The notes beneath the pieces were generated by a model. It worked only from the letters and a program-made list of their open reading frames with translations, was not told where the DNA came from and made no database searches. DNA of 64,000 bases from Chloroflexota bacterium (GTDB lineage Bacteria; Chloroflexota; UBA11872). The translations under genes were made by a program, and so were the position numbers. Positions 44,967 to 48,766 of this stretch are shown piece by piece; positions within the stretch are counted from its first letter, which is position 1, and every line of letters begins with the position of its first letter. The stretch is from assembly GCA_965208215.1 (NCBI GenBank), contig CBDBOH010000003.1, positions 1,338,129 to 1,402,128 on the forward strand, in the 5' to 3' direction.

Positions 44967-45779
44967 GTGCCCCCCTTCGCTGAACTCAAAGACCGCGTCG
45001 CCATCGTCACCGGCGCCGCCCAGGGCATCGGCTGCAGCACCGCCGTTACCCTTGCTAGCCACGGCATGCCCGTCGTCCTCGCCGACCTCAACGACGACCG
45101 CGGCCAGCGCGTTGCGTCTGAGATCACAGCCGCCGGCGGCCGCGCCGCCTACGTCCACGCCGACGTCGGCACGATGGCCGGCTGCGAAGAAATGGTCCAA
45201 ACCGCCCTCCACCGCTTCGGCGGCGTCTACGCCCTCGTCAACAACGCCCGCTGGCACCCCCACGACAAGCTCGTGGACGTCACCGAGGCCGACTGGGACC
45301 GCAGCCAGGACGTGCTCATCAAGTCCCACTTCATGGCCTGCAAGCTCGCCATACCCCACATGATCGCCGGCGGCGGCGGCTCCATCGTCGGCATCTCGTC
45401 TGCCCACGCCATCCAGGTCAACTCCATTGAGGGCCCCTACGAAGCCGCCAAGGCCGCCATCAACGCCCTCATGCGCAACGTCGCCGTCGCCTATGGCGAA
45501 CACGGCATCCGCGCCAACAGCATCTTGCCCGGCGGCATCATGACCGACGTCAAATACGAAGCCGCCGCCCTTGATCCCACTCCCGAGCTCGACGCCCGTC
45601 AGGCCCTCCAGAACCCCGTCCGCCGCCGCGGCGACGCCCAGGACATCGCCAACGCCGTCCTCTTCCTCGTCTCCGACCTCGCCGGCTTCGTCACCGGCGA
45701 ATCCCTCGTCGTCGACGGCGGCATGTCCATCGAACTCCCCGGCTCCATCGCCAGCCGCATCACGGGCCTTGACATCTGA
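44967..45779 (+). CDS. SDR-family oxidoreductase
   Basis: VAIVTGAAQGIGCSTA, NNAR, and YEAAK catalytic motif. Confidence 0.85.
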   Translation: MPPFAELKDRVAIVTGAAQGIGCSTAVTLASHGMPVVLADLNDDRGQRVASEITAAGGRAAYVHADVGTMAGCEEMVQTALHRFGGVYALVNNARWHPHDKLVDVTEADWDRSQDVLIKSHFMACKLAIPHMIAGGGGSIVGISSAHAIQVNSIEGPYEAAKAAINALMRNVAVAYGEHGIRANSILPGGIMTDVKYEAAALDPTPELDARQALQNPVRRRGDAQDIANAVLFLVSDLAGFVTGESLVVDGGMSIELPGSIASRITGLDI

Positions 45780-45881: not shown

Positions 45882-45889
45882 TGTAGAAT
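45882..45889 (+). promoter_or_regulatory. Extended -10 promoter element TGTAGAAT
   Basis: TGn-TAGAAT ends 6-7 nt before the first base of the conserved leader (CAGTCGGG at 45896). Confidence 0.5.
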
Positions 45890-45895
45890 TATTTA

Positions 45896-46155
45896 CAGTC
45901 GGGTTTGCGAACGGCAATGCCGGACGGGTCGCAAAAGGACCGCCGGCAAATGATGGTCACGGGCCTGGGGTGAGGGTTGCGATGCCCCGGCAGCGCCCCG
46001 CGCAGGCGGGCCGCGGCTCCAGCCCGGGCTAGTGGGCGGGCCGCGAATCGCGAGATCTGCATCGTGGCTTGGTCCACCGCTGACGTCGAAATGGAAGCGG
46101 CGTCATACAAGCGCGCCCCGCGCGCAAGCCGGAGCGCAGAATCGGAGAGCCCGCT
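45896..46155 (+). ncRNA. Conserved ~260-nt 5' leader of paralog A (candidate cis-regulatory RNA)
   Basis: ~93% identical to the copy-2 leader although upstream DNA has diverged. GC-rich with hairpin-prone segments (GGGGTGAGGGTTGCGATGCCCCGG). Confidence 0.4.
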
Positions 46156-46797
46156 GTGAGATGGATCAGAACAATTGCCGTCGGACTGGCCGTGGCCCTC
46201 ACGGCCATCGCGCTCAGCGTCGGCCTCGTCACGGCCGATGACTGCAATCAGCCGGCCCCTGATGACTTTCGGTCCGACGTGGCCTGGGATGGAACGGGGC
46301 TGCATCATCAACCACAAGACGTGCAGGACCTGTTCAGCAGGGTCTGGGGGACCGACGACGATCTTCATGTCCGCACCTGGGCCTGGCAGCACAACTGCCG
46401 AACGCAGCCGCGCGAAGCGGCGGGCGACCCGGCGCACGGGTCCTCGATAAGCGACGATCAGGACGCCGCTGGAGCCTTGGGCAGCCTGGCCGGCCCCCAG
46501 CGGCAGTCGCTTTCCGAATCGAGGGTCAACCTTGCGAATGTGACCACGGGCGGCCCCTGCCGCAGTTCATCCTGGCCAAATCCGGATCAGAGGGAGCTCA
46601 TCGCTGCGGGCGAGTGGTATTTCTGCAATGAGAGCACCGGTGAATGGGTCCTGCGCAAGCGCGCGAGACCGTCGATCGACTACGCCACGGACGATCAGTT
46701 GGTGGCGCCCGAGGTTGGCCACTGTACGTCAGGCTTCACGCACTATGACCCAATTGCCCGGACCTGCATCCTGTATCCGGATGGGCCTGACGTGTAA
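46156..46797 (+). CDS. Secreted Cys-containing hypothetical protein, paralog A
   Basis: Signal peptide MRWIRTIAVGLAVALTAIALSVGLVTA. N-terminal ~90 codons near-identical to paralog B. Variable acidic linker. C-terminal ~60-aa domain with 4 conserved Cys (FCN...HYDPI..TC..YPDGPDV). Confidence 0.65.
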   Translation: MRWIRTIAVGLAVALTAIALSVGLVTADDCNQPAPDDFRSDVAWDGTGLHHQPQDVQDLFSRVWGTDDDLHVRTWAWQHNCRTQPREAAGDPAHGSSISDDQDAAGALGSLAGPQRQSLSESRVNLANVTTGGPCRSSSWPNPDQRELIAAGEWYFCNESTGEWVLRKRARPSIDYATDDQLVAPEVGHCTSGFTHYDPIARTCILYPDGPDV

Positions 46798-46987
46798 AGC
46801 CGAATAAGGGCCGCGTCGCCGACCGCGCAGTGTCCATCGAACTCCCCGGCGCCATCGCCAGCCGCCTGACCGCCTCGACATCTAACGCCGGCCATTTGGT
46901 TGGCGAGGCCGTGCGAGTCCGGGGCGGCCACCAGGTCTGGCGCGCGCTGCCGGTGATGCAGGCACGCGCGGCGCAGGCTGCGGAGCG

Positions 46988-46995
46988 TGTAAAAT
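46988..46995 (+). promoter_or_regulatory. Extended -10 promoter element TGTAAAAT (copy 2)
   Basis: Same position relative to the conserved leader (CAGTCGGG at 47001), although the surrounding promoter-proximal sequence has diverged. Confidence 0.5.
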
Positions 46996-47000
46996 CATGC

Positions 47001-47262
47001 ACAGTCGGGTTTGCGAACGGCAATGCCGGACGTGTCTCAAAAGGACCGCCGGCGAAACGATGGCACCGGGTCTGGGGTGAGGGTTGCGATGCCCCGGCCG
47101 CGCCCCGCGCAGGCGGGCCGCGGCTCCAGCCCGGGCTAGTGGGCGGGCCGCGAATCGCGAGATCTGCATCGTGGCTTGGTCCACCGCTGACGTCGAAATG
47201 GAAGCGGCGTCATACAAACGCGCCCCGCCCAGAAGCCGGAGCGCAGATTCGGGGAGCCCGCT
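47001..47262 (+). ncRNA. Conserved ~260-nt 5' leader of paralog B
   Basis: See 45896-46155. Confidence 0.4.
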
Positions 47263-47904
47263 GTGAGATGGATCAGGACAATTGCCGTTGGGCTGGCCGC
47301 GGCCCTTACGGCCATCGCGCTTAGCGTCGGCCTCGTCACGGCCGATGACTGCAATCAGCCGGCCCCTGATGACTTTCGGTCCGACGTGGCCTGGGATGGC
47401 ACGGGGCTGCATCATCAACCACAAGACGTGCAGGACCTGTTCAGCAGGGTCTGGGGGACCGACGACGATCTTCATGTCCGCACCTGGGCCTGGCAGCACA
47501 ACTGCCGAACGCAGCCGCGCGAATCGGCGGGCGACCCGGCGGACGAGTCCACGACAACCGACGATCAGGACGCCGATGACGACTCAAGTGGCCAGTCGGG
47601 CGGCGGGCGCGAAAAGCGTCCCGAATCGGGAGTCAACATGGCGCACGTGGCCACTCGAAGTCCCTGCCACGGCCAGACTCGGCCAAACATAACCACGGAG
47701 GAGGTCATCCAGGACGGCGCGTGGATTTTCTGCAATGCGGAAACCCGCCAGTGGTTCAAAGCCAGGCGTGTGATCCCGGGAGTCGACTATGCCGCGGACC
47801 ACCAGCTGGTGGCGCCCGGGGTTGGCAACTGTGCGGACGGCCAAACGCACTACGATCCCATCAGCAAAACCTGCATGTTCTACCCGGATGGGCCCGACGT
47901 GTAA
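47263..47904 (+). CDS. Secreted Cys-containing hypothetical protein, paralog B
   Basis: Same architecture as paralog A. The central region (DDQDADDDSSGQSGGG) differs. Confidence 0.65.
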   Translation: MRWIRTIAVGLAAALTAIALSVGLVTADDCNQPAPDDFRSDVAWDGTGLHHQPQDVQDLFSRVWGTDDDLHVRTWAWQHNCRTQPRESAGDPADESTTTDDQDADDDSSGQSGGGREKRPESGVNMAHVATRSPCHGQTRPNITTEEVIQDGAWIFCNAETRQWFKARRVIPGVDYAADHQLVAPGVGNCADGQTHYDPISKTCMFYPDGPDV

Positions 47905-48039
47905 GGCTGACCAGGAACCTCGCCGCGTCCATCGCGAGGCACATGCCCGGCCTCGAGGTCTCGAGGTCGGGCCTCTCAGGTCAGACGCTTGAAGGCCGGA
48001 GGCGGACGAACGCCCCAAATGCTCGGTTGCGGAAACGCG

Positions 48040-48058
48040 GTGATATCATTGCTATCAC
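48040..48058. promoter_or_regulatory. Inverted repeat GTGATA-N7-TATCAC, 30 nt upstream of vapB
   Basis: Read from the sequence. Candidate VapB operator. Confidence 0.35.
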
Positions 48059-48087
48059 TGTATGACGTTTCTGGCGAAGGCTCTGTC

Positions 48088-48333
48088 ATGGCCAGCATCA
48101 TCGTGCGCAACCTCGACGAAGGGCTGAAACACCGCTTGCGCATCCGGGCGGCTGAGAACGGGCGGTCCATGGAGGAGGAAGTCCGCGACATCCTTCGAAC
48201 GGCGCTCAACAACCAGCCCGCGGCGCCGGAGAATCTGGCAAGCGCGATCCGCGCCCGGTTCGCGCCGTTGGGCGGCGTCGAACTGGACCTGCCGCCTCGC
48301 TCACCCATGCGCAAGCCGCCTCGATTCGACTGA
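48088..48333 (+). CDS. vapB: VapB/FitA-like ribbon-helix-helix antitoxin
   Basis: MASIIVRNLDEGLKHRLRIRAAENGRSMEEEVRDILRTAL is a typical RHH antitoxin N-terminus. ATG 48088. The longer track ORF starts at 47989. Confidence 0.7.
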   Translation: MASIIVRNLDEGLKHRLRIRAAENGRSMEEEVRDILRTALNNQPAAPENLASAIRARFAPLGGVELDLPPRSPMRKPPRFD

Positions 48334-48343
48334 CACGGCCGCG

Positions 48344-48766
48344 ATGATCGTCCTGGACACCAACGTCGTCTCGGAGTTGATGCGTCCCAATCCCAGTTCC
48401 CGCGTCATGCATTGGGTTGCCGCACAGTCGGTGCCACGGTTGTACCTCTCCACCGTTAGCGAAGGCGAGTTGCGCTACGGCGTGGAAATCCTCCCATCCG
48501 GTAATCGGCGAACCCTATTGCAGGACCAGATTGAAGGAATGCTCTCGGAAGACTTCGCCGGCCGCATCCTGCCCTTTGACCGCGCGGCGGCCCACGCCTA
48601 CGCCGCGATAGCCGCCGCCCGACGCGCTGCCGGGCGCCCGATCAACCACGCCCACTGCCAGATCGCGGCCATAGCTCGGTGCCGGGGAGCTTCAGTGGCA
48701 ACCAGGGACGTCGTCGGCTTCGAGGGAAGCGGCATCGACGTGATCGATCCTTGGACGGATCGCTGA
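48344..48766 (+). CDS. vapC: VapC-family PIN-domain toxin
   Basis: MIVLDTNVVSE (first acidic residue), further conserved D/E, and the C-terminal TRD motif. 140 aa, 10 nt after vapB. Confidence 0.85.
   Translation: MIVLDTNVVSELMRPNPSSRVMHWVAAQSVPRLYLSTVSEGELRYGVEILPSGNRRTLLQDQIEGMLSEDFAGRILPFDRAAAHAYAAIAAARRAAGRPINHAHCQIAAIARCRGASVATRDVVGFEGSGIDVIDPWTDR

Follow-up and report, generated by a model that had tools for sequence, protein, structure and literature searches.

Elements in 5′ UTRs that pair the 5′ end of a transcript with its translation initiation region, or that act as 5′-terminal stabiliser stems, are represented by the E. coli ompA 5′ UTR and by the fold-back inhibition of hok mRNA. 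T-box leaders are known in Chloroflexi. Duplicated bacterial genes can undergo concerted evolution by gene conversion, for which the duplicated tuf genes are an example. Near-identical non-coding DNA between tandem paralogs can arise by gene conversion too, which calls for caution, and among closely related MAGs, conservation should be weighed against the divergence at synonymous sites before it is taken as a sign of a structured RNA. These points bear on a leader of about 260 nt in a Chloroflexota genome, which occurs in two near-identical copies and had been proposed in an initial annotation as a candidate riboswitch or other cis-regulatory RNA.

The Locus and Its Protein Family

The window, that is, the whole stretch of 64,000 nt that was analysed, is GC-rich and carries two tandem copies of a gene for a 213-aa protein, each preceded by a leader and located downstream of a gene for a short-chain dehydrogenase (SDR). 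The features needed here are the following (positions in the window):

44967..45779, plus strand, SDR (short-chain dehydrogenase) gene upstream of the leader (Pfam adh_short_C2, E = 1e-58); its 3′ end is the left edge of the duplicated unit
45882..45889, plus strand, −10-like box of copy 1, TGTAGAAT, with TG directly abutting TAGAAT; putative promoter element
45896..46155, plus strand, leader copy 1, about 260 nt, non-coding, presumed 5′ UTR
46144..46158, plus strand, translation start region of copy 1 (Shine-Dalgarno GGAG 46144-46147, 8-nt spacer, GTG 46156-46158)
46156..46797, plus strand, gene copy 1, 213 aa, GTG start
46829..46885, plus strand, relic of the SDR 3′ end, with which the second duplicate unit begins, 86% identical to 45722-45779
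46988..46995, plus strand, −10-like box of copy 2, TGTAAAAT, with TG directly abutting TAAAAT
47002..47262, plus strand, leader copy 2, delimited by its sequence and the alignment with copy 1
47263..47904, plus strand, gene copy 2, tandem paralog of copy 1, 213 aa, GTG start

The loci closest to the window are the Chloroflexota MAG contigs JAPOWQ010000035 and OY764080. In total, 14 leaders from about nine lineages of uncultured Chloroflexota were compared, derived from two genome loci, one metagenome locus (nearly identical to L004) and contigs encoding members of the protein family. Every recovered leader lies between the SDR gene, which is syntenic at every orthologous locus, and the target gene. 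No such leader was found upstream of the distant homologs L014 and L016, which reside in other contexts.

The protein consists of a signal-peptide-like N terminus, a 60-residue N-domain that is nearly invariant across the family, a low-complexity linker and a Cys-containing C-domain. Only 14 relatives were found among 5.8 billion clustered proteins. Pfam, NCBIfam and the PDB, the latter by profile search, contained no relative, and protein function as a clue to a ligand was abandoned on these empty searches; the AlphaFold model reached a pLDDT of 45 and was too poor for a fold search. The N-domain is 99% identical between the two paralogs and 80–92% identical among orthologs. The C-terminal half (46441-46797 compared to 47548-47904) has diverged fast and mostly non-synonymously, with 72 of 118 codons differing, 12 of them synonymously. 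A conserved head combined with a variable tail recalls diversifying secreted proteins. Toxin-antitoxin modules flank the locus, namely a FitA-like RHH and PIN pair downstream (window about 47989-48766), beyond which a DNA-alkylation-repair gene is located, and VapB and PIN upstream in orthologs (170-995 in L003/L004; also in L010/L011).

Several leaders are shortened by deletions, and the gene is intact in all lineages concerned. L011 lacks 21 nt, corresponding to most of hairpin H6 (see below). About 110 nt (window 45963-46076) are missing from L013, L006, L009 and L010, where the junction shows a CTG microhomology, and in L009/L010 a further 35 nt (46099-46133) are deleted. The 5′ ~68 nt of the leader are retained in every lineage, including the one with the shortest form. 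The L005 locus (923-1860) is a recombinant mosaic, in which the gene is 92–94% identical to those of L002/L004 at 4-fold sites and the leader is 73–75% identical to theirs and 81% to that of the window.

The −10-Like Box and Coding Potential

Both leaders open with CAGTCGGGTTTGCGAACGGCAATGCCGGAC (longer stretch: CAGTCGGGTTTGCG), located 6 nt past a −10-like box. A box in front of this common sequence had been described in the initial annotation as an extended −10 with the spacing TGnTA(G/A)AAT; the box itself was found in both copies at the expected position, and the spacing has to be corrected, as the TG directly abuts the hexamer. It is located one position nearer to the hexamer than in the canonical sigma-70-type extended −10 (TGnTATAAT, TG at −15/−14). 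No −35 element was detected at either box, and a consensus promoter scan called no plus-strand promoter there. An ECF-type GGAAC −35 element was considered and rejected, as it occurs in some orthologs only. The five defining positions of TGTAnnnT are invariant in 13 out of 13 leader-bearing sequences (alignment A3), and this invariant motif is placed exactly at the onset of conservation. On the basis of the alignment, a promoter function of the TAnnnT box with flanking TG is plausible, which would make it a non-canonical candidate promoter.

In several orthologs an inverted repeat, CGTACAG(N15)CTGTACG, was observed, the right arm of which overlaps the −10-like box (2703-2731 in L002; also in L004, L015, L013, L009 and L010). 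It represents a candidate operator or hairpin and is absent from the window copies. CsrA-type GGA sites and DNA palindromes within the leader were rejected after checking the alignment by eye, as they are not conserved. Scanning for intrinsic terminators revealed no terminator-like site inside the leader.

The leader is non-coding, as stops are present in every frame in several orthologs, indels of 1–2 nt occur and no domain shows 3-nt periodicity. An upstream extension of the CDS, a conserved uORF and a minus-strand ORF (45889-46437) were ruled out by ortholog stops, frame-breaking indels and missing periodicity. Most long-form lineages and L013 carry a 22-codon uORF (46091-46159, ATG to TGA), whose stop codon and the GTG start are merged in the sequence GTGA. 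Its ATG is missing in L003, an immediate stop is found in L011 and L006, and coding periodicity is not detectable; the leader contains no conserved small ORF of the kind expected for a leader-peptide or uORF attenuator.

The window and six orthologous loci were further compared to Rfam 15 (4,227 models) using cmscan with both the gathering threshold and a permissive cut-off of E ≤ 10, and no match to the leader was obtained. This agrees with the initial annotation, which had matched no known riboswitch class and had proposed this search. A weak match to the Rfam family CRISPR-DR28 corresponds to the GC hairpin H6 on the minus strand. At repeated intergenic elements of L011 (4355-4413) and L013 (43-101 and 3506-3564), sub-threshold matches to whalefall-1 were observed (25.4 bits, gathering score 37, E = 0.01); no such match was present in the window. 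Riboswitches typically precede metabolic or transport genes in several operons, whereas this leader was found only in front of one small family of 14 proteins.

Tandem Duplication and Probable Gene Conversion

The leader and the beginning of the gene belong to a block that is shared by both copies:

45896..46440, plus strand, high-identity (95–96%) block common to 47002-47547, interpreted as a gene-conversion tract

Across the duplicated unit of 1,107 bp, identity is mosaic, with 86% in the SDR relic, 67% in the region upstream of the box, 94.6% in the leader (246 of 260 positions), 96.5% in codons 1–95 and 66.7% in codons 96–213. The value for the upstream region was obtained with the two copies aligned in register, shifted registers averaging 29%. 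This in-register homology together with the 86%-identical SDR relic argues that the whole unit is an old tandem duplication. All lineages examined also carry an SDR 3′-end relic 3′ of the target gene (intergenic regions of L004, L011, L013, L006 and L009), which points to an ancient tandem event in which SDR 3′ end, spacer, leader and gene were duplicated together. Among the loci fetched, both gene copies were kept only in the window.

Consequently, the initial picture of the two copies needs revision. Two near-identical leaders do exist, and their identity is slightly higher than the ~93% originally given. The high identity, which had been thought to run up to the start codon, in fact continues through codon ~95, and the DNA upstream of the −10, described as completely diverged, is clearly homologous and preceded by the SDR relic. 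The few differences between the leaders had been assigned to possible stem halves. Fifteen columns differ, only one of which is located in any proposed helix, and no compensatory pair was found among them, which does not uphold this assignment.

The two halves of the gene have different closest relatives. Over the N-terminal part, copy 1 shares 99% identity with copy 2 and 88% with the L001 ortholog; over the C-terminal part the respective values are 52% and 72%. For the leader, identity is 0.946 between the two window copies and 0.91 between copy 1 and L001. Both hallmarks of gene conversion are present, i.e., a sharply bounded mosaic profile, and clustering of paralogs inside the tract and of orthologs outside. 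This clustering points to a tract of some 550 bp, from 45896 to about 46440, that was exchanged by gene conversion or recombination. Since the conversion tract explains the identity of the paralogous leaders, their near-identity provides no evidence of leader-specific selection.

Conservation of the Leader

To judge conservation between lineages, the 4-fold sites of the target gene were used as yardstick (saturation level about 0.33). Over 36 lineage pairs the mean leader identity was 0.726 compared to 0.693 at these sites, which are possibly not truly neutral; without the hypervariable columns 95–131 the leader reached 0.737. The 4-fold sites of the SDR gene (44967-45779) were dropped as a neutral yardstick, as extreme NNC codon bias keeps them 81–92% identical between all lineages regardless of the divergence elsewhere in the locus. 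The leader evolves on average at about the synonymous rate. In the lineages for which the downstream intergenic region with the SDR relic was compared, identity was 0.69 in that region and 0.76 in the leader, and the 100 nt upstream of the box showed 0.47–0.68, which is lower than in the leader. Leader identity and 4-fold identity of the gene correlated at only 0.24, indicating recombination among the lineages, and in recombining populations any claim of independent compensatory events is weakened.

Substitutions are clustered along the leader (index of dispersion 1.89 versus 0.76 in permutations, p < 0.001). Columns without variation in five other lineages contain only 3 out of 25 differences between window copy 1 and L001 (p = 0.002). 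Some leader columns are clearly constrained, the rate heterogeneity being reproducible in independent comparisons.

Candidate Secondary Structures of the Leader

The following candidate helices were considered in the leader of copy 1:

45896..45905, plus strand, 5′ strand of H1, CAGUCGGGUU, which can pair with 46148-46156 (the spacer between Shine-Dalgarno sequence and start codon)
45919..45947, plus strand, hairpin H3/H4 of the 5′ domain (alignment columns 24–52), found in most lineages, broken in L011 and L009/L010
45975..45985, plus strand, 5′ strand of H5, GGUUGCGAUGC, an 11-bp long-range helix
45994..46015, plus strand, H6, a hypervariable GC hairpin, its sequence replaced in the L002 group and largely deleted in L011
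46039..46046, plus strand, H5′ strand, GGCCGCGA, alternative and thermodynamically preferred partner for 46062-46069
46059..46069, plus strand, 3′ strand of H5, GCAUCGUGGCU, including CGUGGCU, the longest invariant run of the leader
46081..46105, plus strand, hairpin H7 (UGACGUCG ... CGGCGUCA), identified by helix comparison across the alignment

Folding and covariation were evaluated against shuffled controls. MFE z-scores of single sequences ranged from −1.63 (window copy 1) to +1.31 (L002), with −1.0 for the minus strand. RNAalifold applied to six lineages yielded z = −1.32 for the sense and −1.88 for the antisense strand relative to column shuffles, with no sub-domain reaching significance, and a structure conservation index (SCI) of 0.51 at 71% mean identity. 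Of 26 conserved stacked helices detected in an exhaustive scan, nine had a double-sided change, the respective numbers in shuffled alignments being 25 and 9.3; covarying helices were thus not in excess over column-shuffled alignments, in a set of about nine recombining lineages with low power. The RNAalifold helices 11-13:241-243, 17-20:235-238 and 129-136:222-228 were discarded, as they are poorly retained across lineages. A hand-assembled model (H1, X, H3, H4, H6, H5′/H5″ and H7) had 90% of its cells paired and exceeded 500 of 500 within-pair shuffles, as did a variant using H5 instead; the model was chosen post hoc and this control is lenient for related sequences.

Only H5 survived the strict null. 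This helix comprises 11 bp including four G-U pairs, joins the two best-conserved blocks, and is kept in six out of six long-form lineages with one double change from C-G to U-A. Its length was reached by 9 out of 1000 column shuffles (p about 0.009), and the longest helix on the minus strand was 6 bp. Enforcing H5, however, costs +2 to +11 kcal/mol in eight out of nine long-form sequences and +21 kcal/mol in L003, whereas enforcing the competing H5′ costs 0–1.4 kcal/mol in most sequences, H5′ being in or near the MFE structure. Four GGYYRCGR segments (45903-45910, 45955-45962, 45975-45982 and 46039-46046) are each complementary to the single invariant UCGUGGCU at 46062-46069. These complementarities may be due to chance, reflect alternative pairings of the RNA or stem from a partial duplication within the leader (45901-45923 is similar to 45974-45990). 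The deletions described above take out whole candidate modules, either the H6 hairpin or the domain closed by H5.

H1 is part of the MFE structure of both window copies, L001, L007 and L005, with duplex energies of −14 to −17 kcal/mol. In L003, the L002 group, L011 and all short forms it is weak or absent (at or below background). The predicted unpaired probability of the spacer between Shine-Dalgarno sequence and start codon is 0.04–0.07 in the window copies and 0.33–0.52 in other lineages. H1 was rejected as a family-wide mechanism, as it is confined to the sequence type of the window.

Taken together, the leader is undescribed, i.e., outside any described RNA family and without a demonstrable family-wide fold, and the riboswitch reading is unsupported but retains a low probability. 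What remains of the initial annotation is a non-coding leader downstream of an invariant box that recurs in about nine lineages. Its step from a long conserved leader to a structured RNA, and from there to a riboswitch, is not supported, as none of the consensus-structure tests was significant; H5, the site-rate heterogeneity and the hand-assembled model are left as hints at a structured element.

Alternative Explanations

The explanation we favour, and hold with about evenly balanced confidence, is that of an ordinary, partly constrained long 5′ UTR, homogenised by gene conversion, which damps translation in a generic way and senses no ligand. The leader would belong to a lineage-specific gene for a secreted protein and would probably be transcribed from the TGTAnnnT promoter without a −35 element. 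Within the old tandem duplication, conversion or recombination over about 550 bp may have homogenised the leader and the first ~95 codons, such that the near-identity of the copies would be a by-product of concerted evolution and the flanks would have drifted to ~67%. In the window copies and in three out of four relatives that share their sequence type and the long leader (L001, L007 and L005), the first 10 nt are predicted to pair with the 8-nt spacer between Shine-Dalgarno sequence and GTG. H1 would in this way damp translation initiation and bury the 5′ end, an effect that is most likely generic and specific to the sequence type of the window. From this arrangement we infer where transcription starts, how translation or mRNA stability is affected, and that no ligand is involved. 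A simpler possibility, which we consider unlikely, is an essentially unconstrained spacer with function only in the −10 box and the Shine-Dalgarno/start region, the rest persisting through close kinship and recombination. The similarity of leader identity to 4-fold-site identity would fit such a spacer, as would the tolerated deletions of 21–110 nt and the lack of a significant structure signal, and the neighbouring pseudogene relic is likewise still recognisable in every lineage. The site-rate heterogeneity, reproducible across independent comparisons, nevertheless argues against it, together with the better conservation of the leader relative to the 100 nt upstream of the promoter, the presence of the 5′ ~68 nt in all lineages, even the shortest, and the H5 complementarity.

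That same complementarity also counts in favour of a new structured cis-regulatory RNA, possibly a riboswitch, in which UCGUGGCU (46062-46069) would switch between GGUUGCGA at 45975-45982 (H5) and GGCCGCGA at 46039-46046 (H5′), the 5′ end would be paired alternately with the spacer before the start codon or with other segments, and translation would respond to a signal. We regard this as improbable. It is favoured by the conserved 11-bp H5 on the sense strand only and by its mutual exclusion with H5′, both of which are found in six out of six long-form lineages, each with at least one double-sided change; the four GGYYRCGR segments complementary to one UCGUGGCU, a helix X (columns 11–15 with 83–87) with two double changes in different lineages, the loss of the variable hairpin and of a whole domain as units, and the consistency of conserved and variable sites across lineages point in the same direction. 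Yet folding and covariation stay at the level of column shuffles (SCI 0.51), the consensus fold of the sense strand is no better than that of the antisense strand, and none of H1, H3, H4 and X is intact in every lineage. Moreover, the gene is intact in lineages missing 110–145 nt of the leader, the leader is tied to one gene family with no regulon, an intrinsic terminator is lacking, and overall conservation is at about the level of synonymous sites. The more specific proposal of a new RNA class confined to an uncultured Chloroflexota clade, with UCGUGGCU toggling between H5 and H5′ and a helix of the 5′ end with the Shine-Dalgarno spacer gating translation of a fast-evolving secreted protein upon some signal, appears decidedly improbable. 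If alternative pairing of H5 and H5′ and a constrained 5′ domain did prove true, the phylum Chloroflexota, in which few RNA regulators have been characterised, would gain an undescribed one; with a secreted protein of near-invariant N-domain and fast-diverging C-terminal half under its control, it would offer a route to the function of this protein family. Very improbable, finally, is the proposal that the region is untranscribed regulatory DNA, e.g., with operators for DNA-binding proteins, and that the true transcription start is near the GTG. The start at 45896 is a prediction, conservation looks more sequence-level than structure-level, and in orthologs the inverted repeat CGTACAG(N15)CTGTACG overlaps the −10 box (2703-2731 in L002), all of which would be compatible with such DNA. 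Inspection of the alignment, however, revealed no second conserved TAnnnT box nearer to the start codon, the invariant TGTAnnnT is found exactly where conservation begins, palindromes within the leader such as CGCGAATCGCG are not conserved, and the best conserved complementarity requires G-U pairs, which makes it RNA-like and strand-specific.

Comparison with Known Systems

Like the riboswitches and structured 5′ leaders in Rfam 15, the leader extends from a promoter-like box to the Shine-Dalgarno/start region over about 260 nt, with conserved and variable blocks alternating and a dispensable variable hairpin. It differs from them in having no model match, no significant fold, no terminator platform, a single associated gene and a narrow distribution. 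With T-box leaders it shares length and GC-richness, and GGTCCACCGC (about 46073-46082) presumably recalls the T-box sequence in a loose way. In contrast to T-box leaders, no match to RF00230 was obtained at E ≤ 10, the leader contains no terminator, and the downstream gene is neither an aminoacyl-tRNA synthetase nor an amino-acid gene.

In the structure models, the window-type leader resembles 5′ elements of the ompA/hok type in that its first 10 nt would pair with the spacer before the start codon without a 5′ overhang. The difference is that L003, the L002 group, L011 and the short forms have this pairing only in weak or broken form, so that it is no conserved feature of the family. With no counterpart in Rfam and a distribution limited to a small Chloroflexota clade, the leader can at most be counted among 5′-UTR elements in the broad sense.

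The duplication itself parallels the concerted evolution of the tuf genes, with a bounded block of 95–96% identity between flanks of ~67% and discordant gene halves. It differs in the extent of the tract, which here comprises a non-coding leader and only the 5′ ~45% of the gene, whereas the 3′ half is diverging quickly and mostly non-synonymously.
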